DNA from: a phage
Sequence record: PZ452610.1
Reading direction: 5' to 3' (one strand)
DNA: 64,000 nucleotides
Shown here: positions 17,196 through 29,551 of the stretch, one piece after another
Numbering within the stretch: the first letter of the stretch is position 1
Layout: every line of letters starts with the position of its first letter
Position numbers and translations under genes: made by a program
Notes under the pieces: model-generated
What the model was told of the DNA's origin: nothing
Seen by the model: only the letters and a program-made list of their open reading frames with translations
Databases searched by the model: none

Positions 17196-18635
17196 AAATT
17201 TTAACTCATTGGCTAAGCTATCTAGGTCAGCACGTGTTGCTTTGGCTTTACCTACGCGTTCCGTACGATTCACCTCTGCCTGACGCATCTGAGCACCTGC
17301 GTTTTCATTTACTGTGTTAGGTGTGTTCATGCCTTCTTGCTCAATCTCAATCCATTTCTGGTTGCCTTTACGTACACCCATCAGGAATTTATTCCACTTA
17401 TTCTTATCGCCGTATCGTGATTTGATTTGTTTGATAAGTTGTTGTTCAGCTTGTGCAAGTTCTTCGGTTTCAATTACAGCCAACATGAAATCCGCCGTTG
17501 CTGGTAAACCTGCTGATTCTGCAATATCACTCATGTTCATGTCTGAAGCATCCCATGCTGCACGTCCTACTTGAGCTGCAGTCCATAGAACTGTTTCAGA
17601 TTCTACTGCTAATGCACGAAGTTCTTCTGCGATAGCTTTAACTAATGTGTAGCTATTTTCAGTGTAAACTCTGATACGACAAGACCCACAAATACCTAAG
17701 TAATCAACCATGATTACAGATGGTACAAAGTTCTTCTTAAGTTTTAACTCATTAAGCAATGCACGAAATGTATTAGCATTAGCTCCACCAGTAGGATACT
17801 GTTTAACTACTAAACGTCCTAATGTTGTTTTTGAACGCCATTTTTCCATCTTGGCTTTATATTCAGCATAAGATACGTTACCATCATCAATATCATCAAG
17901 TGATACGTCAAGCATGTTTGCATCTATACGCTTAGCACAAACTTCTTCAGCCATTTCCATAGAAATATAAAGAACGTTATGACCTGTTTGAAGATAATCT
18001 GCAGCAAGTGAACAAAGGCCTAAAGATTTACCAACGTTAACACCGGCCATTAAAACGTTCAGTGTACCTGTTTCTGCACCACCTTTGGTGATTTTATTCA
18101 GAATGTTTAATTTGAACGGGACCTTACGTGCTTTATTTAGATAAGAAAGCCAGCGTGCTTCATAATCTTCCATCCAGTCATGGCCAACATAACTATCAAA
18201 CGAAATTGAAAGTGCTTGACGCATAATATCAGGAATAGCTCCTACGTCAGGCATTTTCTTGTTACGTTGTTCTGGAGGTAGTTCAGCATTAGACTGAATC
18301 TCAATGATTTTGGATGTAGCATTATACATCGCTTTTTGCTGGACATATTTCTCAGTTTCTTTAACCAACCATTCATGGTCTTCAGGAGTATCAGCCAATT
18401 TTTCAATTAGGTCTGAAGTTCCTTTATATTCGGCTTCAGTTAAAGAACTGTTATCTAAAGCCACCTTTAACGCATTGATAGATGGCATTGCATTATATTC
18501 GTTAACGTGGCTCTTTATAATTTTAAAGACATTTTTTGCCGGTCCACGCTCAAAATACTCAGAATCCATATAAGGCCAGACCTTAGAAAAATAAGCCTGG
18601 TCATATACGAGATGAGACAAAATAATTTCTACCAC
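17193..18635 (-). CDS. 41: Replicative DNA helicase gp41 (DnaB family)
   Basis: 480 aa; MVEIILSHLVYDQAYFSKVWPYMD... and Walker A GVNVGKS match T4 gp41; start codon appears to be GTG. Confidence 0.95.
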   Translation of the reverse strand: MVEIILSHLVYDQAYFSKVWPYMDSEYFERGPAKNVFKIIKSHVNEYNAMPSINALKVALDNSSLTEAEYKGTSDLIEKLADTPEDHEWLVKETEKYVQQKAMYNATSKIIEIQSNAELPPEQRNKKMPDVGAIPDIMRQALSISFDSYVGHDWMEDYEARWLSYLNKARKVPFKLNILNKITKGGAETGTLNVLMAGVNVGKSLGLCSLAADYLQTGHNVLYISMEMAEEVCAKRIDANMLDVSLDDIDDGNVSYAEYKAKMEKWRSKTTLGRLVVKQYPTGGANANTFRALLNELKLKKNFVPSVIMVDYLGICGSCRIRVYTENSYTLVKAIAEELRALAVESETVLWTAAQVGRAAWDASDMNMSDIAESAGLPATADFMLAVIETEELAQAEQQLIKQIKSRYGDKNKWNKFLMGVRKGNQKWIEIEQEGMNTPNTVNENAGAQMRQAEVNRTERVGKAKATRADLDSLANELKF

Positions 18636-19007: not shown

Positions 19008-20151
19008 GGTCGTTTTCTATATCTGCTGCAGACGGAGCATCAGAAGTTTTAACCGGAACTTTAGTTGTTGCTTTGCAATTAATAAGGTCGTTAACAGCGT
19101 CATCAACTTCTTTAATAGAAGAGATAGCACCTAGTTTATATTTAGTTTCAATTGCATCTCGGAAAGGTTTGTGTTTAAACAAAGGTCCCCAGAATTCTAC
19201 ACAATCGGTAGCTTTAGCACGCCATGATTTCTCTTCACGAATCATTTCGCCTGTTTCTTCGTCAAGGAATTCGCGAGCATACCACCCGGCTTTAGGCTTA
19301 ACAACAAATCCAATTTCAGTTGCCATTTCTAACAAGCCACTGAATGGGTCAATACCGCCATCAAAATTAACCGTGATCGGGAAAGTAGATTTCTCTTTAA
19401 CTGTACGAGATTTTTCCGCTTTCAACGTAAAGTCATAACCGGTCAATTCTGTACCTTCTTTAACCTGACGTTTAGAGATAAAAAATACCGTGTTGGCAGA
19501 ATAAAGAATACCTGTACCACCGCCCATAATCTCTTTAGGATACAATCCGCCGATTTCCATTGCTGTATGGTTGATTGCAACACATGGAATATCTTTAATA
19601 GTCAGATAAGGAGTCACAATGCGGAACAGAGATTTAAGTGCCTTAGCACGAGACATATCACCTACAACTTTCTCGTTCAATGCATCTTCGGTTTCTTTCT
19701 TAGATGCAGTATTACCAATCGAGTCAATAAAGATAATAACTTTATCACCGCGTTCAATAGCGTCAAGCTGATTAGTCATATCAACTTTAAGTTGTTCGAC
19801 AGATTGAATCGGAGTATGAACTACACGGTCTAAATCAACACCCATTGAACGAAAATAAGATTCCGAAGCACCGAATTCTGAGTCATAAAACAAACAGATT
19901 GCATCTTTATATTTCTTCATATACGCTGCAACCATAGTTAGTCCAAACAACGTTTTAAAGTGTTTAGAAGGAGCAGCAAAAATAGTTAAGCCTGATTGCA
20001 ACCCGGCATTCAGTGCACCACCTAATGCAATATTCAACATCGGAATACGAGTAGGGACTTCATCGCGATTATTAAACAGCTTAGACTTAGTCAAGTCTGC
20101 AGTCATTTTAGAAGTAGAAGCTTTAATCAGACGAGATTTTAAATCAGACAT
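18979..20151 (-). CDS. uvsX: UvsX recombinase (RecA-like)
   Basis: 390 aa; RecA-fold ATPase (Walker A in FAAPSKHFKT region); acidic C-terminal tail; T4 position. Confidence 0.95.
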   Translation of the reverse strand: MSDLKSRLIKASTSKMTADLTKSKLFNNRDEVPTRIPMLNIALGGALNAGLQSGLTIFAAPSKHFKTLFGLTMVAAYMKKYKDAICLFYDSEFGASESYFRSMGVDLDRVVHTPIQSVEQLKVDMTNQLDAIERGDKVIIFIDSIGNTASKKETEDALNEKVVGDMSRAKALKSLFRIVTPYLTIKDIPCVAINHTAMEIGGLYPKEIMGGGTGILYSANTVFFISKRQVKEGTELTGYDFTLKAEKSRTVKEKSTFPITVNFDGGIDPFSGLLEMATEIGFVVKPKAGWYAREFLDEETGEMIREEKSWRAKATDCVEFWGPLFKHKPFRDAIETKYKLGAISSIKEVDDAVNDLINCKATTKVPVKTSDAPSAADIENDLDEMEDFDE

Positions 20152-20249
20152 TGTATTTTTCCATAGGCATCATTATATTTTACTCATGTTTAAAAGATAA
20201 GATGATTATATACTAAGGGTTATACAGCATTTAAAACTTTAAATGACTC

Positions 20250-20798
20250 TTAACGAGCCCATTTGATGATTTCTGTAATCAAATCATTACGTTCGCTTGC
20301 ATTAAATCCTATAACTTTGTTAGCACCATCATGATTAAGTAATTGATACGTTTGGATTTTGTTATGAATTGCAAACTCTTCAAAATGTGAAATGACTGTA
20401 TTAAAACCGAATGAAGACAAAGTGATAAGGTCGTCTTCAAAACTTTCAGTCATTTCGTTACGTGTTAAAATAATTGTGAACACATCATGGTTTTGGCAAA
20501 GACGAACATAATCCTGTTCATAAACGTCAAGAACCGAGTCCGCATCTTGTCGAATACGTCCATAAACCCAGTTACTAATATATCCACGGTCTAACAGATA
20601 AATCTTAGTAGGGTCTAAATAATTCAACATCGTTTCGAAACAGCCAACTTCATTTCGAGACTTAACATCGAAACGTCCATCAACTGTTCGTTTAGGGAAA
20701 TCAATCTTTACATATCTTTCACTAATTTCCATTATGTCATTAATGAAAGTTGTTTTACCAGCATTATCCGGGCCATCTACTAAAATAATTTTAGCCAT
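20250..20798 (-). CDS. P-loop nucleotide kinase, thymidylate-kinase-like
   Basis: 182 aa; Walker A GPDNAGKTT and downstream LDRGYISNWVYG resembling the TMK DRY...S motif. Confidence 0.55.
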   Translation of the reverse strand: MAKIILVDGPDNAGKTTFINDIMEISERYVKIDFPKRTVDGRFDVKSRNEVGCFETMLNYLDPTKIYLLDRGYISNWVYGRIRQDADSVLDVYEQDYVRLCQNHDVFTIILTRNEMTESFEDDLITLSSFGFNTVISHFEEFAIHNKIQTYQLLNHDGANKVIGFNASERNDLITEIIKWAR

Positions 20799-20799
20799 T

Positions 20800-21699
20800 T
20801 TATTCCTCGATTACGACATCTTCATATTTAGGTATATTATACGGTGAAGAAATTAAAGCATTAAAGTAGATGAACTCACCAAGACCTGGATGAAATACTT
20901 CTTCAGGATTTTCGAAATATTGAATCTTCGGACGTCCTTTAAGAATTTGATAGTACTCAGTTTTAGTTGGTTTAAAAATTCGAATCAACGCTTCTTCAGG
21001 ATACTTATTTCTGTCGAAGCTATTATTTGGATCGGTTATATAAAGCGGTTGACCTAATTGAATTGCGCATTCAACAACTTGTTCAAAACGATAGCATGGG
21101 TCACTAATTCGAAATGGATGAAAAATACCATCTAGATGAATAGGAGCCAAATCACCTACAAGACGCTGCATGATGGAAGGACGTATAACTTTCTGCGTTA
21201 CGATAATCTTATTACCATCTGCACCTGCGTTAACCAGCACTTCTTTTTGACGTTCATTCAACACAGTAGTTTGAAGTGAACGATTAACCGACAACATATC
21301 AGTTTTTAAGAATTCGTCAATATAAAAACGTGGTTTATTAGGGTCTGCAGTGATATTGAAATTGAATTCCACATCAAAAGCGCCGTCATATCCAGTGATA
21401 TCTGTGATTAAAAAATCACAATCATAATAAGCAATTAATGAATCAACAACAAATTCATTTTCAGACCAGAAATATTTACGAGTGTTATACGCGTTATCTT
21501 TATACCATAATGGAACAAACTTAAATTCTGGAAAAAGACGTTCGCATTCTTTAATATCAGATGCATTACGTGGATATGTAATCACATCACCCGGATTAGC
21601 ACGGTGCAAATGAAGTTGGAAGTTGCCATCCTTAAGGATAGCATACTGTCCAGTTTCATAAGACCGCATACTCAAGATTGGTACGCGGAAAATAGCCAT
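20800..21699 (-). CDS. Hypothetical protein, 299 aa, at the T4 beta-gt position
   Basis: ORF between uvsX and 42 where T4 encodes beta-glucosyltransferase; no similarity to beta-gt recognised. Confidence 0.55.
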   Translation of the reverse strand: MAIFRVPILSMRSYETGQYAILKDGNFQLHLHRANPGDVITYPRNASDIKECERLFPEFKFVPLWYKDNAYNTRKYFWSENEFVVDSLIAYYDCDFLITDITGYDGAFDVEFNFNITADPNKPRFYIDEFLKTDMLSVNRSLQTTVLNERQKEVLVNAGADGNKIIVTQKVIRPSIMQRLVGDLAPIHLDGIFHPFRISDPCYRFEQVVECAIQLGQPLYITDPNNSFDRNKYPEEALIRIFKPTKTEYYQILKGRPKIQYFENPEEVFHPGLGEFIYFNALISSPYNIPKYEDVVIEE

Positions 21700-22415
21700 T
21701 AGTCAAGGAATCCTTTAACATAATCAAAATCACGTTCAAACACATGGGCACTTACCATGGTATGAGTATAATCACCAACTTCTACCCCACATTCGTTAGC
21801 GATATAATGAAGTAATTTTCCTTGGAGATAAAAATCCAACTGCATAACAACAGCACAGTTCTGAGAACGCATATGACAGTGGGTATAAAGCTTACCATCA
21901 CGAATATAATAAGTCACTGAGTCAGTACATGGATATTCAAGCGTTTCGTCCGAATCAAGCAAAGCCTGATCAGAACTTTCTAGAATTTGGAACACAACTC
22001 TTCGAGAGTTAGGCTTCTCTTTAAGTTCTTTTAGAAGAGCTGGTAATTGGGCCGCAATGCGAGGACCATAGAAAGTGTTGAAGTTCGCCGGCAAAACATC
22101 TGATTTTGGTTTAGAAATAAATTTAGCGACATTAGGATATGCCTTAAACGCTTCTTCTGCGTTGGTACCACCAGAAATCATAAACTTCCAGAAGTCTTCG
22201 GCATATTCATAAGAGATGCGGTTAATACGTGGGTCGGTCATTTTGAATGATGATGGAGTGTCAACAACTACTGTCATAGACCCAATTTCATTACAACGTC
22301 CAATACGAGAATCAGTTACGAATTCCGGGTTTTCTAAAATTTCACGATTGACTGCTTTAAATGCGGTTTGAAAATCTGCGGCTTTGATATATTTCATTGT
22401 GTTATGTTTTCCCAT
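21699..22415 (-). CDS. 42: dCMP hydroxymethylase gp42 (thymidylate synthase family)
   Basis: 238 aa; TS-family motifs SRRVVF, active-site PC (EYPCTDS), MRSQN; T4 position. Confidence 0.8.
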   Translation of the reverse strand: MGKHNTMKYIKAADFQTAFKAVNREILENPEFVTDSRIGRCNEIGSMTVVVDTPSSFKMTDPRINRISYEYAEDFWKFMISGGTNAEEAFKAYPNVAKFISKPKSDVLPANFNTFYGPRIAAQLPALLKELKEKPNSRRVVFQILESSDQALLDSDETLEYPCTDSVTYYIRDGKLYTHCHMRSQNCAVVMQLDFYLQGKLLHYIANECGVEVGDYTHTMVSAHVFERDFDYVKGFLD

Positions 22416-22457
22416 GTTTACCTCAATACAATTTATTATATACTCAATTCGTAAAGC

Positions 22458-22697
22458 TTATTTGAATTTCTTGACAATGTTGATATAACGTAAAGCTTCA
22501 GCATCGATACTTCCAAGAACACTATGAAGAAATGCATCAGCGTAGTATTCCAATTGAACAGGTTCTTTAATCACTTTAGCCGCTTTAGTTTCAAACAGGC
22601 CCATCAGGGCCTTTTTAAGAATTTGTTCGTTGCTGTTAATTTTCATAGTCAAAATCTCTTCATTAAGTTGGTGGTTAAAAGTTTTTCTAGAAATCAT
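22458..22697 (-). CDS. Hypothetical protein, 79 aa
   Basis: ORF in operon context. Confidence 0.45.
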   Translation of the reverse strand: MISRKTFNHQLNEEILTMKINSNEQILKKALMGLFETKAAKVIKEPVQLEYYADAFLHSVLGSIDAEALRYINIVKKFK

Positions 22698-23869
22698 TCC
22701 GGGTACCTCAAAGCGTCATCAGAGTTAGTTATATCAATAATAGATATAGAGTTTTCTGCTAACCCGTTTTTAGATAATTGACGTTTATAATATCTTTCAC
22801 AATATGTACACGTCGTCCCGCAGATTTCATTAGCACAATCGAAATCTGGATGTCTGAACCACCTTTTTTCTAAAAAGCCATCTAACAAAGAGGTTTCAAT
22901 ATTTACTGTATGTGAAAACTCAGTTTCGTTTTCAAGAGTGAAAATAGTCTCTAAAGGCTTCCACAGTTCTAACAAATTACCTTCAAACTTTTCAGAAGCG
23001 TATGCTTCAAGAACTTTCAAAATGTAGTCTGTGCTACCTGTACGTCCTGAAACTTTGAATTGAGTGATACCAATATCATTATAAAGTTTCAAATCTTGAG
23101 GACGAACAAAACGAGTTCTCAACCAGTTAAATGGGTCTGTATCACGAGCTTTAATACAGTGCTGCATAGGATATCCGTTTAAGGATTTAGCATCATCAGC
23201 TGTAACATCAGTACTATGGAAAATATAGCAAGAGTCACGATAGCTACAATGTGTTGTATACCCTTTACCAGCATTAGAACAGAACTCATTTACAAGAACT
23301 TCAAATATTATATTGTTCTTATTGCAAAACTCTGCTGCACGCTTCAGGAAAGAAACTGAACGGTTCTTATGAATTCCACAGCAGACCTTTTTGATATTAT
23401 ACTGGTCATGCAAGTATTTGATTTGAGTTACAGCATCGACATGTAGAATTGTTGAAACTTCAATCTCAATGTCTTTATTGACTTCACGAACAATTTCCAT
23501 AACAACAGGGTTAGCGATAGTAATACGCCATACGCCTATTGACCAAAGATACTGAACATAATCCTGAATAGCTTTCTTCTTCCACCCAACTAGTTCTCTT
23601 TTTGAACCAGGATTTATCGTGTTGAGTGTATAGTTAAAGCAAATACCTAATTCGTTACAACGTTTAACGTAATCTTCTAACATCTTTTTGTCAACGTCAG
23701 GAAGCCTAAAATCAGGTCTGGCTGCTACAAAAGCCATTTCTCTTGTAGAGCCGTATACTTCGTTTATCAAGCTATTAGGATAAGTTTTATTGAGCTCTAC
23801 GATTTTATCAAGAAGAGCTAAATCAAAATTCGTTCCAATTTTAAAAGTATTCATTTTTTTGCATCTCAC
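22694..23869 (-). CDS. Hypothetical protein, 391 aa, with C-terminal Cys cluster
   Basis: C-terminal CANEICGTTCTYC (C-x4-C-x3-C-x2-C); family not recognised; sits inside the sugar-nucleotide cassette. Confidence 0.6.
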   Translation of the reverse strand: MRCKKMNTFKIGTNFDLALLDKIVELNKTYPNSLINEVYGSTREMAFVAARPDFRLPDVDKKMLEDYVKRCNELGICFNYTLNTINPGSKRELVGWKKKAIQDYVQYLWSIGVWRITIANPVVMEIVREVNKDIEIEVSTILHVDAVTQIKYLHDQYNIKKVCCGIHKNRSVSFLKRAAEFCNKNNIIFEVLVNEFCSNAGKGYTTHCSYRDSCYIFHSTDVTADDAKSLNGYPMQHCIKARDTDPFNWLRTRFVRPQDLKLYNDIGITQFKVSGRTGSTDYILKVLEAYASEKFEGNLLELWKPLETIFTLENETEFSHTVNIETSLLDGFLEKRWFRHPDFDCANEICGTTCTYCERYYKRQLSKNGLAENSISIIDITNSDDALRYPE

Positions 23870-23910
23870 GTTAATTGATGCGATGGTTTTTGCAGGTCTT
23901 ACTTAAATTA

Positions 23911-24312
23911 TTATAGATTCGGTTTATATGATTTAAATGTTTCGAATTCGCCTTTATTCATAAGAGCTTTGAATTCGTCAGGACGCATAGCTTTGTCGTC
24001 GATAATCCAATCATATACTGGTTTATGTGTTAGCAAATTATGGTACTTCAAACCAATGTTTTCCAAGTTCTGAATCAGACTTGGGAGAATGTCAATTGCT
24101 ATACGACCAGGACCTACTGACTTCATACCGCGAGCAGTGTAAAGCGTTATGGTATGCCCTGCATCATACAGGGCATTAATAGCAGTCACCATTTCGACGT
24201 CTGGTTTGAAGTTCACGTAATCACGATTGTTATTCCACTCTGTTATACAATCATCGACATCAAAACAAAGATTAAGCATGTTTTCTACACGGTGCATTAG
24301 ATTCGTTCCCAT
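23911..24312 (-). CDS. HAD-superfamily phosphatase-like protein, 133 aa
   Basis: N-terminal FDVDDCIT (HAD motif I-like), TLYTARG (motif II), KPVYDWIIDD (motifs III/IV). Confidence 0.6.
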   Translation of the reverse strand: MGTNLMHRVENMLNLCFDVDDCITEWNNNRDYVNFKPDVEMVTAINALYDAGHTITLYTARGMKSVGPGRIAIDILPSLIQNLENIGLKYHNLLTHKPVYDWIIDDKAMRPDEFKALMNKGEFETFKSYKPNL

Positions 24313-25982
24313 TGATGAGTGATATCGCCACCGATTGGACGATAAGAAACACCAGTTTCTTTATCAGTTAGTACCCATTTACCAGGATTTTTTGTAATCA
24401 GAGTAGCCGTTACAGGTTCTGCTACGTCATAACTAATAGAGCCGTCCTGAAGTACACGGCCCATGTTACGTAATTGCTTAGTCAGAAGTTCCATACCTTT
24501 ATAATATGCGGCTACCGCTTTAAGTGGATTATTCTTGAAATAACCACCTAATGCAATCCAGATAATTGCTACAGCCAAATGATGATACTCGTTAAACGAA
24601 CTCATCTTTCCATATTTGTAAACTAATGGATTGATGTTAATAGTCACATTACAAGTTGTTTCGTCAATAGTAAACTGTCCCCAGGTCGGATTAGCGTTGA
24701 ATTCATCATAACCTGAAACAGCATAAAGCACTTTAGCTTCATCATACAATTTTGGCCCGTAAATCTTGGTTTCGCCAAAATATCCACGAGGGTCGATAAA
24801 CTTGACTTCGCCGTTATCAGTAATCATAGTATTACTGAAGTTCGGGTCACCGTGAATAACAGAGTACTGTCCCTGAGAACGGGTATGATAACGAATAAGA
24901 TGTTCTAAAGCTTGCTTCAGCATTGGCTTCAGACGTCCAATCTTAGTGTAGTTCACGTGTGTGATTTTACCAAATGAATCAATCAATGGCTGAATGCTTT
25001 CACAACGATCAATAACTTTCGTATAGAACTCTTTAGTGAAATCACGGCGAACAGTTTCAGGACTTACAAAATAAGTGTCTGTGCTGAATTTCAGTGCATC
25101 TAAAATTGCATCAACAATTTGTGGACGAGCAAGACTTGATTTGGATTTAATATATTCAAATGCTGGCTTACCTTTAATACGTTCCATTTCAAAATTATTT
25201 TCATTTACCGAAACTAACTGAGGAACTGAATCTGATTTCACTTTCAAATACCATGAAATCTCATCTTTTTGAAGAGCTCGACCTTGTTCGGTTAACGCGA
25301 ATTTAGTTACAGTTTCTTCGCCAATTTCAACTGCATTAAAACTACGATTAAGTTCACGAACTTCATGAGCTTTTTCAAGTTTAGGCATATCACCTAAATC
25401 AATTAGATTCATAAGCTCTGATTTATTGAATGCACTGCCGTAAAGGAATTCTACGAAATCACGTCCTTTGCAGTATTCATGAATTTCCTCATCAGTAGAA
25501 CCCATGTAGAATTCCCAGTCTTTGAACTGATAAATTCCTACAACATTACCGCCTGTTGAACCTACGTTAGTGATATTTTCACCATCGAAATTATATCGAC
25601 ATTCATCACCCTTAACATAGATTGCGTTAACATTCCAAGACCATGAACCAAAATCAGGAATAATATCACACCAGTTAACAATTACGTTATGGCCATCTAA
25701 ATCTTTGTATAATTTAGCAAGAGCATAAGCAGAACCATACGCTTCATCAACTGTACGAATAGTCACATTGAACCCTTCTTGCTCGCAATAAGCTCGAACA
25801 GTTTCAGCAAATTTTGAATGAACTACTACAATAATTTCATCTGCGCCAAGGTCAGAATAAATTGTATACAAATTGCTCAGAATAGTGTCTTGTTTATAGT
25901 TAACAAGAACTTTTGGAATATGATGCGTTATTGGATACAAACGAGTTGCCAGTCCAGCACCAAGAATAACAGCTTTTTTCAT
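24297..25982 (-). CDS. Bifunctional sugar-1-phosphate nucleotidyltransferase / APH-type sugar kinase
   Basis: 561 aa; N-terminus KAVILGAGLATRLYPITHHIPKVLV (NTP-transferase G-x-G-x-R-L); C-terminus HGDPNFSNTMITDNGEVKFIDPRGYFG (APH/ChoK catalytic loop). Confidence 0.75.
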   Translation of the reverse strand: MKKAVILGAGLATRLYPITHHIPKVLVNYKQDTILSNLYTIYSDLGADEIIVVVHSKFAETVRAYCEQEGFNVTIRTVDEAYGSAYALAKLYKDLDGHNVIVNWCDIIPDFGSWSWNVNAIYVKGDECRYNFDGENITNVGSTGGNVVGIYQFKDWEFYMGSTDEEIHEYCKGRDFVEFLYGSAFNKSELMNLIDLGDMPKLEKAHEVRELNRSFNAVEIGEETVTKFALTEQGRALQKDEISWYLKVKSDSVPQLVSVNENNFEMERIKGKPAFEYIKSKSSLARPQIVDAILDALKFSTDTYFVSPETVRRDFTKEFYTKVIDRCESIQPLIDSFGKITHVNYTKIGRLKPMLKQALEHLIRYHTRSQGQYSVIHGDPNFSNTMITDNGEVKFIDPRGYFGETKIYGPKLYDEAKVLYAVSGYDEFNANPTWGQFTIDETTCNVTININPLVYKYGKMSSFNEYHHLAVAIIWIALGGYFKNNPLKAVAAYYKGMELLTKQLRNMGRVLQDGSISYDVAEPVTATLITKNPGKWVLTDKETGVSYRPIGGDITHQWERI

Positions 25983-26023
25983 GTTGTGGTCCTCATTGGT
26001 AAGTAGGTGTATTGTACACTATT

Positions 26024-26167
26024 CTAGTTAAAGCATTCATACTTTGCTTGTAGTCCAATCATAATCCATCCAATTACAAGTGTTGGAATCATTACTGGAG
26101 CCGTTAAGCTCCAGTAGATAGTCATGACAAGCATCAATAGTAAAAGTCCTATTGTTATTGCTTTCAT
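26024..26167 (-). CDS. Possible small membrane peptide, 47 aa (not in ORF track)
   Basis: ATG overlaps the TGA of the SIS gene (ATGA coupling); MKAITIGLLLLMLVMTIYW... hydrophobic. Confidence 0.3.
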   Translation of the reverse strand: MKAITIGLLLLMLVMTIYWSLTAPVMIPTLVIGWIMIGLQAKYECFN

Positions 26168-26799
26168 TGTTCGCCTCGTAACATGGCACCTAGTGCACCG
26201 CCTGGATGGAACTTAAGAAAGTCATTAGAGGTAAATCCACGTTCAGACGAAAGGTTGATAGCAAACGTATCGATAAGCGCTAACAACAATGTAGTGGACA
26301 TAGTCGGAGCCAGAGAATTCTCATCAACCTCTACCGCGATGCCTGTACAGAAAGAGTAATCAAAAAGGGCTTCATTTTCTTGCGGAATGTCTGGGTTACA
26401 ATGCAACAGAATCTGTTTGACATTTGGACGAATCATTTTAAGATGCTTAGCCACGCCTATCATTTCTTCAGTCTTACCAGAACGACTAATATGAATCAAC
26501 ACATCATTAGGCGCAATGAATCCTGCATCACCGTGAGAATAATGCCCAGTGTTCAAGTACATACTCGGGATACCGAGTGAAGCAAATGTCTCAGAAGCTT
26601 TAGTTGCAATATTAGCATTCTTACCAACACCTGTAATAATTACTCGGCTTTCATAATTACTAAGTCCAGGGCGTCGAAGAGTTTCTAGAATAGCATTATA
26701 ACGAGCAGGGTTTTGACTAATTACTTTGGCCATAGCGGCCAAAGAAGAAGCTTGTTTTATGATTGCGTCAATAGCGATAGTAATAGGAGTAGTTTTCAT
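26164..26799 (-). CDS. Arabinose-5-phosphate isomerase-like SIS-domain protein (KdsD/GutQ type, no CBS domains)
   Basis: 211 aa; VIITGVGKNANIATKASETFASLGIPS...HGD...HISRSGKT and C-terminal HPGGALG parallel the E. coli KdsD SIS domain. Confidence 0.8.
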   Translation of the reverse strand: MKTTPITIAIDAIIKQASSLAAMAKVISQNPARYNAILETLRRPGLSNYESRVIITGVGKNANIATKASETFASLGIPSMYLNTGHYSHGDAGFIAPNDVLIHISRSGKTEEMIGVAKHLKMIRPNVKQILLHCNPDIPQENEALFDYSFCTGIAVEVDENSLAPTMSTTLLLALIDTFAINLSSERGFTSNDFLKFHPGGALGAMLRGEQ

Positions 26800-26839: not shown

Positions 26840-29551
26840 TCAAAAATCGAACATATCGAACAGAGATGCTTTCTTCTCGTAATCGAGTTTCGCTGCTGAT
26901 GTGAATCCTTCAAGTGGTTTAATAAATGTCTTCTCAAGGAGAACAGTGTAGTCCATCCAATGAAGTACGTCATCTTTAATTAAATCTGTGATTTCAGTAC
27001 CAGAAGGCCATGCGATACATTTATCACCGAACGGGTTTCCTTCACGTAAAGGCAGAACATATACTTTTTCACCTTCTACAACTTGTGGAGCATCAATATT
27101 ACCTTTGATAGCTCTGTTATATGTCAGAATTCCACGAATATGGAACGGACATTTAGGACCAGGGAATCCACCTACATCATATTTAGCAATGTTATTCGCA
27201 GAAGATACCGACGCGATGCTAATATAATTCAATTGACGGAATTCTTTTTCAAACTCTTTAAAATATTCTTGTAATGATTCTTCACCTTCTTGAAGCATAC
27301 GACGAATACATTCTTTAAGAGCTTTCTGTACTGCTTTAGGGGTCGAAGATTTCTGAGTCTCTAGACCCATGATTTTGAGTTTAGGCTCAGCGTAACGAGT
27401 ACCTTCCATATCCCACACGTTTAATGCGTAACGTTTCTTACCAGTCCAGAATCCACCAATACCTTTAGAACCGAGCGGAGGACCAGCGATAGCTTCTCGG
27501 TCCATGAACATTAAGTGTTGTTTATTGTTCATGTATTCACACATTTCACGGAAACCTCTATCAATAGCAGGTTCCATACGTTCACGAGCGAACTTATCTA
27601 AGAAGTCTACCCAATGGTTGGTATCACGGAATTTAGATTCACCAACCTTATCGATAATTTTATCAGCAGATACGTAAATAGAGTCTGTATCACCATAAAG
27701 AACGAAAGCTTCACCTTCTGTACCACAAACTTCGTTCAGATATTCATTAACTTTACGTTCAATCCACTGTAAAGCCATTTGACCAAATGTTGTGATTGCA
27801 GTAGCATTACGCAAATCGTAATAACGGAACCAAACGTTGCCAAGTGCACCATAAAGTGAGTTGATAAGCAATTTACGGTTAATTTGTGCAGTCATACCTG
27901 CAACTTCAGTACGTTGAGCTCTAAACAACATTTCATTAAGAGATTTAGCAGACAACTTTTTAATCTTTTCTTTAATCTCGTCAGTGAAGTCGAAACGATA
28001 ATCAACATCTAATGGTTCGTCAACAGAAAGATTAGGATTATGCAACGCCTCTTTAATTATTTCACCATTACGTTGAGCCGCAAGCATATAACCTTTATGT
28101 TCTTTACGTTGATTAAAGACCTTAGTGATTTCAGTTGGAACTACACCATCACGGTCTTTATAATACATCATGCCATTAGGAGAACAACTGTACACATCTG
28201 AAGGACGTTCAGCGATTGCGTTAATATAATCATGCAGTGGAGCTACTTTAAACGTTCCTGCTATTGTTTCCGGGCTAATATTCACTTGGCGAATAATACT
28301 TGGATACAGAGATGTAAGGTCGAAACTCATTACATATTTGTATCGATTTGGAATAGGTTCCTTAACAAAAGCGCCAGGATAAGGTTGAACCGGGTGAGAA
28401 CGACCTTGTGGAATCACCTTGTTCTGCTCTTTAAGGCTATTAAAAATAATAGCATCCCATGTTTTAATTGGGCTAAACACAGATTGAATCTGTATCTTAG
28501 CATAATAACCCATGTCCAAACTCAAGTTGATGAACTGACGCTTAGCATCAATTTGCAATACACGATACACGTCGATAATGTTATAAGAAATATATCGTTG
28601 GTGATTGCTTTCACGAAGCTTAGAAATAGGGCCGTCATATTTCAGTTTACCAACGTTCAATTCAAATTCTGAAATGTAATCTAGAGAATACGACGGTTGA
28701 TTGGTAAAAGAGAATTTTTTGTAAAGGTCGATATAATCAAGAACAGAGATACCGAACAATGTAATGATTTCACGAGAACCATACATGTTTTCGATAACTT
28801 TAACACGAGTTTTACGATGCGGTGATAAACGTTTCGCAGTAGATTCGCCAAAAATATTCTTGATTCGGTTATACACATATGGAATATCAAATGACTCAAC
28901 GTTCCATCCAGTCAAAATGACAGGAGTTTTCTGTTGCCAGAAGTTGAGATATTCCATCAACAATTCTTTTTCGTTATCGAACGGCATATAAATGATTTTA
29001 TCGATAATTTCAGATGGAACTTCATCACCGCCTTGTTCTTGAAGCTTAGCAGCGATTTCAATAGACCATTCTTCTACATTACCATATGGAGAATTCAATA
29101 GATCAAATACGTAGAACCTGTCGTCAATTGAGTCATAATGGGTGATAGCATCAATCGGATGTTTTGCTTGTGATGGCTCAGGGAACCCATCCGGAGATGT
29201 TACTTCGATGTCGAAGTTAGCCACACGAATTTTTGTATGGTCGTATTTGATTTCATAGTTATAAGTGTCAGACAAATACGCCAATTTGAAATCGTCCATG
29301 CCAAGTGCTTCAAGTCCGATATCTTCCATGCGTTTAATCCATTGGGAGGCATCACGCATATTAGCGAACAACTTACGAGTACACGGCTTACCGTAGATAT
29401 CGAAATATTTCGTAGCCTGACTTTCCGGACAATGAGCAAACAGTGATGGTTTATATTCTACTTCACGAGTACGTTCACGGCCATTAGAATCGATGTAACG
29501 TTCAAAAATTGAATCACCAATCTGTTCAACCGTTAAGTAAAATTCTTTCAT
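26840..29551 (-). CDS. 43: DNA polymerase gp43 (family B); matches RB69 gp43 from memory
   Basis: 903 aa; N-terminus MKEFYLTVEQIGDSIFERYIDSNGRERTREVEYKPSLFAHCP..., exo motif FDIEV, pol motifs DTDS and KKRY. Confidence 0.98.
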   Translation of the reverse strand: MKEFYLTVEQIGDSIFERYIDSNGRERTREVEYKPSLFAHCPESQATKYFDIYGKPCTRKLFANMRDASQWIKRMEDIGLEALGMDDFKLAYLSDTYNYEIKYDHTKIRVANFDIEVTSPDGFPEPSQAKHPIDAITHYDSIDDRFYVFDLLNSPYGNVEEWSIEIAAKLQEQGGDEVPSEIIDKIIYMPFDNEKELLMEYLNFWQQKTPVILTGWNVESFDIPYVYNRIKNIFGESTAKRLSPHRKTRVKVIENMYGSREIITLFGISVLDYIDLYKKFSFTNQPSYSLDYISEFELNVGKLKYDGPISKLRESNHQRYISYNIIDVYRVLQIDAKRQFINLSLDMGYYAKIQIQSVFSPIKTWDAIIFNSLKEQNKVIPQGRSHPVQPYPGAFVKEPIPNRYKYVMSFDLTSLYPSIIRQVNISPETIAGTFKVAPLHDYINAIAERPSDVYSCSPNGMMYYKDRDGVVPTEITKVFNQRKEHKGYMLAAQRNGEIIKEALHNPNLSVDEPLDVDYRFDFTDEIKEKIKKLSAKSLNEMLFRAQRTEVAGMTAQINRKLLINSLYGALGNVWFRYYDLRNATAITTFGQMALQWIERKVNEYLNEVCGTEGEAFVLYGDTDSIYVSADKIIDKVGESKFRDTNHWVDFLDKFARERMEPAIDRGFREMCEYMNNKQHLMFMDREAIAGPPLGSKGIGGFWTGKKRYALNVWDMEGTRYAEPKLKIMGLETQKSSTPKAVQKALKECIRRMLQEGEESLQEYFKEFEKEFRQLNYISIASVSSANNIAKYDVGGFPGPKCPFHIRGILTYNRAIKGNIDAPQVVEGEKVYVLPLREGNPFGDKCIAWPSGTEITDLIKDDVLHWMDYTVLLEKTFIKPLEGFTSAAKLDYEKKASLFDMFDF

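Follow-up and report, generated by a model that had tools for sequence, protein, structure and literature searches.

The 64,000-nucleotide stretch of phage DNA analysed here (sequence record PZ452610.1; the window) carries on its minus strand, at 20250..20798, a 182-aa P-loop nucleotide kinase that adopts the thymidylate kinase (TMK) fold in structure prediction and lies against a cytosine-modification cassette. Comparative data suggest that its acceptor is most likely 5-hydroxy-deoxycytidine monophosphate (5-hydroxy-dCMP), or a C5-modified dCMP generally, a claim that we hold at about even confidence. The DNA of phage RB69 and of Acinetobacter phage DLP3 contains arabinosylated 5-hydroxycytosine rather than arabinosylated 5-hydroxymethylcytosine (hmC), and RB69 gp48, a ThyA homolog, was shown by experiment to be a flavin-dependent 5-hydroxy-dCMP synthase (Lee et al., NAR 2026, PMC13326640). 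That the gene belongs to the cassette and codes for a TMK-like kinase is already known, since RefSeq names the gene and two papers list its product as TMK-like. Specifically, RB69p045, DLP3 gp78 and RL38J1 gp214 are listed as 'nucleotide kinase' in PMC13326640, and the entry in PMC8056088 (2021) reads 'homologs among thymidylate kinases'. A substrate assay of RB69p045 is reported in neither of these two papers, and the kinase is not discussed in Thomas et al. 2018 or in the Thanatos paper.

Fold and conserved residues of the kinase

The open reading frame (ORF) starts with ATG and its translation reads MAKIILVDGPDNAGKTTFIND...LLDRGYISNWVYGR... It is orthologous to RB69p045 (99.5% identical), DLP3 gp78 and Thanatos TH1_064. 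The window belongs to the genus Mosigvirus: over the 7.2 kb surrounding the ORF it matches Escherichia coli O157 typing phages 3, 6 and 13 at 100% identity and RB69 at 98.3%. RefSeq calls RB69p045 'thymidylate kinase', a name used by many submitters. The ORF matches PHROG 761 'thymidylate kinase' (E 1.6e-45), was found by tblastn in 344 records of a phage collection, and shows pairwise ratios of nonsynonymous to synonymous substitution (dN/dS) of 0.07-0.21 against its orthologs, with dS close to saturation. Because of these results and the confidence of the structural model described below, we regard it as more than a chance ORF, and it is under purifying selection.

Searches with single sequences detected only the P-loop. 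For the window kinase, Pfam Thymidylate_kin gave no match at E<=1, the NCBIfam DTMP_kinase model, which has a cut-off of 83.25 bits, scored 16.6 and covered the P-loop only, and phmmer against the PDB retrieved RecA, thioredoxin and ABC transporters and no TMK. Among close homologs, 12 of 18 had Thymidylate_kin matches, all sub-threshold (best E 2e-4), and the profile search reached a best E of 0.004. A word-indexed search yielded 27 kinase homologs at E<=0.001, the named ones being from phages with the same type of cassette, and an alignment of the window kinase with 17 of these 27 served as input for structure prediction. The resulting AlphaFold2 model had a mean predicted local distance difference test score (pLDDT) of 88.5 and a predicted template modelling score of 0.85, with pLDDT <50 at residues 121-125, and the seven best PDB matches of its fold were all TMKs. 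Profile-profile alignment of the kinase family with human and E. coli TMK gave a probability of 94% (E 1.1e-7), hhalign spanning the N-terminal 83 columns only and leaving the LID and the C-terminal half unmapped residue by residue; the human TMPK sequence used was 100% identical to PDB 2xx3, and E. coli Tmk was taken from the MG1655 genome.

A HMMER search of 1.84 billion representatives retrieved 317 proteins at E<=1e-3 and 45 at E<=1e-10, and 58 of 92 distant relatives found with the family profile matched Pfam Thymidylate_kin (best E 2e-31). On these counts the kinases form, as far as sequences tell, a small, distinct and mostly phage-borne group inside the TMK superfamily. The window kinase was the seed of the family profile; it carries the family-defining residues and lies close to a synthase gene.

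The first-pass annotation, made from the sequence alone, had proposed a TMK- or deoxynucleoside kinase (dNK)-like P-loop kinase and had named AAA ATPases as the competing assignment. Fold, profile-profile alignment and transitive homology support its proposal. The AAA-type Pfam matches were sub-threshold (AAA_14 E 0.04), covered residues 3-44 only and are contradicted by the fold and the motifs. The T4 gp1-type deoxynucleoside monophosphate (dNMP) kinase (PF21448 DNMK; 1dek) was not the closest to the window kinase by either sequence or fold, and the fold, E-R-S motif and long Arg-rich LID of the dNK family (PF01712; dCK/dGK/Dm-dNK) were not found in it. With respect to NadR ribosylnicotinamide kinase, AAA_28 and Bacillus subtilis YorR (2axp), the motif alignment of the window kinase is instead to TMK, and the kinase neighbourhood contained no NAD-salvage genes.

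Conservation was scored over 42 family representatives of <=50% mutual identity. Both motifs quoted in the first-pass annotation are present, at residues 9-16 and 69-80. The first, GPDNAGKT (20751..20774, minus strand), is a Walker A motif or P-loop with the acidic residue of TMKs, D11, and aligns with G13-V-D15-R-A-G-K-S of human TMPK. G9, G14 and K15 occur in 42/42 representatives and D11 in 41/42, the position being D or E in all 42. D11 corresponds to the acidic P-loop residue of TMKs, which contacts the 3'-OH of dTMP. Further along, F34-P35-K36-R37 aligns with human F42-P43-E44-R45, and F54 with the base-stacking F72. The second motif, LDRGYISNWVYG (20559..20594, minus strand), runs from L69 to the Gly after Y79 and is the counterpart of the TMK motif DR(Y/H)..S...(F/Y). 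Its D70-R71...S75...Y79 aligns with human D96-R97-Y-A-F-S101-G-V-A-F105, and conservation is complete at D70 and R71 (42/42) and high at S75 (37/42), N76 (35/42) and Y79 (40/42); the third residue of the DR motif is Gly, not Tyr or His. Y79 presumably packs against C2', as do its equivalents, F105 of human TMPK and a Tyr of yeast and E. coli TMK.

The likeness to TMKs (PF02223; human 1e2d/2xx3, E. coli Tmk, vaccinia A48R 2v54) therefore comprises the fold, the acidic P-loop, FP(K/E)R, the stacking aromatic and DR..S...(Y/F), and distant relatives of the kinase grade into PF02223. However, the window kinase is ~30 residues shorter and has Asn12 where type I TMKs have the P-loop Arg, a position that varies across the family. 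Its LID-like loop, TRNEMTESFEDDLITLS (residues ~112-128; 20415..20465, minus strand), is the least confident part of the model; compared with the LID of TMKs it is short, with one conserved Arg (R113, 37/42) where type II TMKs have several, and a DD pair that is invariant at D122 (42/42) and nearly so at D123 (37/42). The helix segment with the Arg that contacts thymine O4 (human R76, E. coli R78) is deleted: the hhalign alignment has an 8-residue gap after F54, corresponding to human S73-V80, and no conserved Arg was present in residues 48-60 across the 42 representatives. The conserved positions of the family are G9, D11, G14, K15, D70, R71, S75, N76, Y79, R113, D122, D123 and N133.

A TMK fold with K15, D70 and R71 (phosphoryl transfer) intact and with D11 and Y79 kept points to an active 2'-deoxynucleoside monophosphate kinase. 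On the other hand, the loss of the thymine-O4 Arg argues that the acceptor is not thymidylate and fits a non-thymine pyrimidine. From these residues and from the genomic context we infer catalytic activity, a 2'-deoxy pyrimidine monophosphate acceptor and, within that class, 5-hydroxy-dCMP.

Linkage to the 5-hydroxy-dCMP synthase

The kinase adjoins the modification cassette, as the first-pass annotation had noted. The kinase reading frame begins 1 nt past the stop codon of a gene for a 299-aa glycosyltransferase (GT1; 20800..21699), and the start codon of the GT1 gene overlaps the stop codon of the gene for a ThyA homolog (21699..22415, minus strand; Pfam Thymidylat_synt E 2.3e-15). The latter encodes the ortholog of RB69 gp48, and its motif HMRSQN.......D corresponds to D169N plus N177D at E. 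coli ThyA positions, the Asn169 and Asp177 signature validated for 5-hydroxy-dCMP synthases (PMC13326640). The window kinase thus differs from TMKs in having a dCMP-hydroxylating ThyA homolog, and no thymidylate synthase, as its genomic partner. The spacing of the genes suggests that kinase and cassette form a single transcription unit; a scan of 19900-26400 gave 19 promoter-like sites against 24 expected from shuffles and found no minus-strand terminator, so that it is the spacing that speaks for co-transcription.

The window and RB69 share the order ThyA homolog, GT1, kinase, in which the stop codon of one gene abuts or overlaps the start codon of the next. The same arrangement was observed in 12 IMG/VR T4-like loci, in Morganella phage Rgz1 and Shewanella phage Thanatos-1, in metagenomic loci (L029/L030, L032/L033, L037, L038 and L039), and in Rhizobium phage RL38J1 (Pootjesviridae), where the proximal sugar is galactose. 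The synthases of all these loci carry Asn169 and Asp177. In RL38J1, the glycosyltransferase gp215 is a detectable homolog of RB69 gp46:47 (E 8e-7), and gp214, which reached an hhalign probability of only 48% against the kinase family, is linked to it by synteny and published fold data. Within the phage collection, the 344 records with the kinase are closely matched in number by 343 that have a synthase >=60% identical to that of Rgz1. Phage JS98 has a different order (HAD, kinase, synthase, GT).

With three exceptions, the kinase of every sampled locus lay <=2 genes from an N169/D177 ThyA homolog. The first exception is Morganella phage MP1, in which an intact kinase gene adjoins uvsX and the whole run of genes from isomerase through GT1 is missing (150-163 kb not covered). 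Pseudomonas phage PMBT14 has a distant kinase relative beside a MazG-like gene, a dCMP deaminase gene and a ThyA homolog with D169/D177, which is of the dCMP-specific, hydroxymethylase or methylase type. The third is a 63-kb viral contig (L019) with a 28%-identical relative and no ThyA homolog within 6-8 kb. The PMBT14 context, together with the lack of arabinose-activation genes beside the triad in RL38J1, means that the kinase tracks the synthase and not the sugar-activation genes. This near-obligate linkage to a dCMP-hydroxylating synthase makes the product of that synthase, or a derivative of it, the more likely acceptor.

Candidate acceptors and the question of a second kinase

In the reading that we favour, the kinase would be an active, ATP-dependent nucleoside monophosphate kinase of the TMK fold and a fixed partner of the 5-hydroxy-dCMP synthase. 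It would convert the 5-hydroxy-dCMP delivered by the synthase to the diphosphate, after which the modified base would enter the triphosphate pool and be polymerised. This step would run beside, and partly overlap, that of the gp1-type dNMP kinase, whose gene lies in another part of the genome. The first-pass annotation had likewise placed gene 1 elsewhere, which agrees with the absence of a gp1 homolog from the window and with the position of RB69 gene 1 (RB69p159) at RB69 77877-78611, past the window end. T4 gp1 (1dek; RB69 gp159) resembles the window kinase in being a phage P-loop kinase for modified dCMP, and the role proposed here is the same. The first-pass annotation had also suggested a modified nucleotide as substrate. 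This part is favoured by the comparative data; the hm-dCMP that it had in mind is not the right nucleotide, since the base is of the 5-hydroxycytosine type (PMC13326640; D169N/N177D).

Several points weigh against this reading, and redundancy is the main difficulty. RB69 gp159 already phosphorylates 5-hydroxy-dCMP to 5-hydroxy-dCDP in vitro, and gp48 plus gp159 are sufficient for 5-hydroxydeoxycytidine in E. coli DNA (PMC13326640), so the window kinase is not strictly required for this step. Nevertheless, two unrelated phage families keep both kinases: RB69, MP1 and RL38J1 all encode a gp1-type dNMP kinase as well, and the presence of both types in RL38J1 (gp214 and gp219) argues against simple redundancy. 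Moreover, the kinase fails the curated TMK models of Pfam and NCBIfam; its catalytic arrangement, as modelled, is atypical because of N12 in place of the P-loop Arg and a single R113 in a short, low-confidence LID; and MP1 keeps the kinase without synthase, GT or sugar genes.

The retention of two kinases would be accounted for if the first sugar were attached before replication. GT1 would then arabinosylate 5-hydroxy-dCMP, the kinase would phosphorylate the resulting arabinosyl-5-O-dCMP, which would be too bulky for a gp1-type kinase, and the polymerase would use the glycosylated dNTP. Such a pathway fits the conserved order of synthase, GT1 and kinase, with coupled stop and start codons, which is seen in two phage families and in many metagenomic loci irrespective of the sugar, and the segment deleted near the base-binding helix could, judging from the hhalign alignment, open space at C5. 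The phage DNA glycosylations that we know of are, however, post-replicative. We regard this pathway as unlikely because there are also kinases with no GT1 beside them, in MP1, in the PMBT14 relative and in one metagenomic locus (L023); the differing order in JS98 also speaks against it. The published experiments leave undistinguished whether the first arabinosylation takes place on the mononucleotide or on DNA, and the individual glycosyltransferases were inactive on 5-hydroxycytosine-containing DNA (PMC13326640). This negative result, for which the paper has 'data not shown', may however have a technical cause, and 5-hydroxy-dCTP was made and polymerised upon expression of gp48 and gp159 (PMC13326640).

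Slightly less probable still is an ordinary dTMP or broad dNMP kinase that raises dTTP for an AT-rich genome and owes its place in the cassette to historical accident. The best structural matches are indeed true dTMP kinases, the database names say thymidylate kinase, and MP1 retains the gene without the 5-hydroxycytosine cassette. Against this stand the missing thymine-O4 Arg segment, scores far under the TMK model cut-offs and the link to a D169N synthase in nearly all contexts sampled. The 344 records are Mosigvirus-like, Acinetobacter, Klebsiella and other phages, which implies that hmC-type T-even phages lack the kinase. In addition, dTMP is already covered by gp1 (RB69p159 annotation) and by the host Tmk.

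An enzyme that is not a free-nucleotide kinase is improbable, whether it would act on a base or sugar hydroxyl in DNA or on another small molecule (NadR-like), or be a non-catalytic ATPase. The 5-hydroxymethyluracil DNA kinase (5-HMUDK) of thymidine-hypermodifying phages is a parallel case, being a phage P-loop kinase encoded beside a ThyA-superfamily pyrimidine-modifying enzyme. Yet 5-HMUDK phosphorylates the base in DNA to provide a leaving group, a step that an O-glycoside does not need, and the final modification is an ether glycoside requiring no phosphorylated intermediate (PMC13326640). The TMK-specific FPxR and DR..S...Y motifs and the P-loop Asp align with TMKs (E 1e-7), and the MBD4-like domain fused to some relatives (see below) could equally reflect a shared role in the maintenance of 5-hydroxycytosine DNA.

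Glycosyl transfer yields UDP, which the host Ndk handles. A kinase that phosphorylates UMP or UDP to UTP, so as to supply or recycle uridine nucleotides for the synthesis of UDP-arabinofuranose, or that removes UDP after the transfer, akin to the NTP supply for sugar activation raised in the first-pass annotation, is very improbable: the gene does adjoin that of a UDP-sugar-using glycosyltransferase, in a putative transcription unit shared with sugar-activation genes (PMC13326640), but D11 and Y79, which read the 2'-deoxyribose in TMKs, are conserved, and the kinase persists without nearby sugar-activation genes in RL38J1 and MP1.

The cassette in the window and in related phages

The cassette genes of the window are all on the minus strand. 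The product of the GT1 gene (PHROG 3891), which by tblastn corresponds to RB69p046 plus p047, is the putative first (base-proximal) arabinosyltransferase, a role proposed and not demonstrated in PMC13326640. Upstream of the synthase gene lie a 79-aa ORF (orf49; 22458..22697), orthologous to RB69p049 and kept in several relatives, and a gene for a U32-family protein (22694..23869; Pfam Peptidase_U32 E 7.5e-11; PHROG 5757), the ortholog of RB69p050, which is labelled 'sugar or heterocycle reductase' in PMC13326640. These are followed by a HAD-type phosphatase (23911..24312; RB69p051, analogous to AfhF; NCBIfam capsule biosynthesis phosphatase E 2e-13) and an AfhE-like protein of 561 aa (24297..25982; RB69 gp52:53) that joins a sugar-1-phosphate nucleotidyltransferase (Pfam NTP_transferase E 1.3e-9) to an APH-like kinase with weak APH/Fructosamin_kin Pfam matches; the roles of both are described in PMC13326640. 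The arabinose-5-phosphate isomerase (26164..26799), assigned from the annotation of its ortholog RB69p055, is the upstream end of the cassette and adjoins DNA polymerase gene 43 (26840..29551). The splits of RB69 genes 46/47 and 52/53 in the reference record are regarded as sequencing errors in PMC13326640, which is supported by the window, where both are uninterrupted ORFs of 299 and 561 aa.

Downstream of the kinase are uvsX, gene 40 and gene 41. The uvsX gene is intact in the window and interrupted in several related phages. Its halves are ~1.3 kb apart in one metagenomic locus (L011, 9339..11896), a GIY-YIG homing endonuclease gene lies between two coding sequences named 'recombination protein' in Thanatos-1 (L026, 11012..13412), and a faint intein-splicing match was seen at uvsX in another locus (L029, 6877..9743).

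In Rgz1, the U32 gene (16667..17827 of L020) is accompanied by a chorismate mutase gene (18023..18400; Pfam CM_2 E 5.9e-12) directly upstream of the 5-hydroxy-dCMP synthase gene. The orf49 product of the window was considered as an equivalent of this chorismate mutase (Rgz1 gp34) and ruled out, having no Pfam match and no similarity to it. U32 proteins, among them RlhA, TrhP and UbiU/V, act as hydroxylases that require prephenate and not O2. By analogy, U32 protein and chorismate mutase together could yield 5-hydroxycytosine anaerobically, as a reserve for conditions in which the flavin- and O2-dependent synthase fails. A U32 gene was not found in the examined stretch of JS98 and of the Acinetobacter phages. 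Flavin reductase genes beside D169N ThyA homologs occur in two metagenomic loci (FMN_red, L023 9068..9613; Flavodoxin_2, L037 3763..4257), which fits the reported FMN dependence of 5-hydroxy-dCMP synthases; the window cassette contains no flavin reductase gene.

Several kinases of uncultured phages (P0059, P0060, P0065, P0067 and P0070; L023 8001..9074) are fused at the C-terminus to an MBD4-like HhH-GPD domain. All 15 of 15 PDB matches of this domain were MBD4 (best E 1.2e-9), and the catalytic-Asp motif GxGKYxxDS is kept. In L023 the fusion gene lies between the D169N synthase gene and genes for the FMN reductase, a SIS isomerase and an AfhE-like protein. From its sequence, the fused domain could serve in the repair of deaminated 5-hydroxycytosine (5-hydroxyuracil:G) or as a DNA-targeting module.

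MP1, which has lost the cassette, keeps the TMK-like kinase (L021 20500..21030), a dCTPase-like gene, an Alc-like gene and gp1. Its td ortholog gp154 (L028 42020..42859, minus strand), with YQRSADVPLGLNFD, has Asp at the position of ThyA N177, which is Asn in its closest relatives, those of Rgz1 and Proteus phage SJ_PmiM. Specificity classically shifts from dUMP to dCMP upon the N177D change, and MP1 may thus make 5-methyl- or 5-hydroxymethyl-dCMP by means of a re-purposed thymidylate synthase.

Host base-excision glycosylases act on 5-hydroxycytosine, and attachment of the first sugar before replication would, if true, keep the naked base out of the DNA. We know of no phage that glycosylates a DNA base before polymerisation, and this would be the first case. 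The puzzle that remains is why a second kinase, of the TMK fold, is kept though the gp1-type kinase accepts 5-hydroxy-dCMP. Its answer bears on a point that PMC13326640 leaves explicitly undecided, namely whether nucleotide or DNA receives the first sugar, and is of relevance to the enzymatic production of 5-hydroxycytosine or glycosylated dNTPs.

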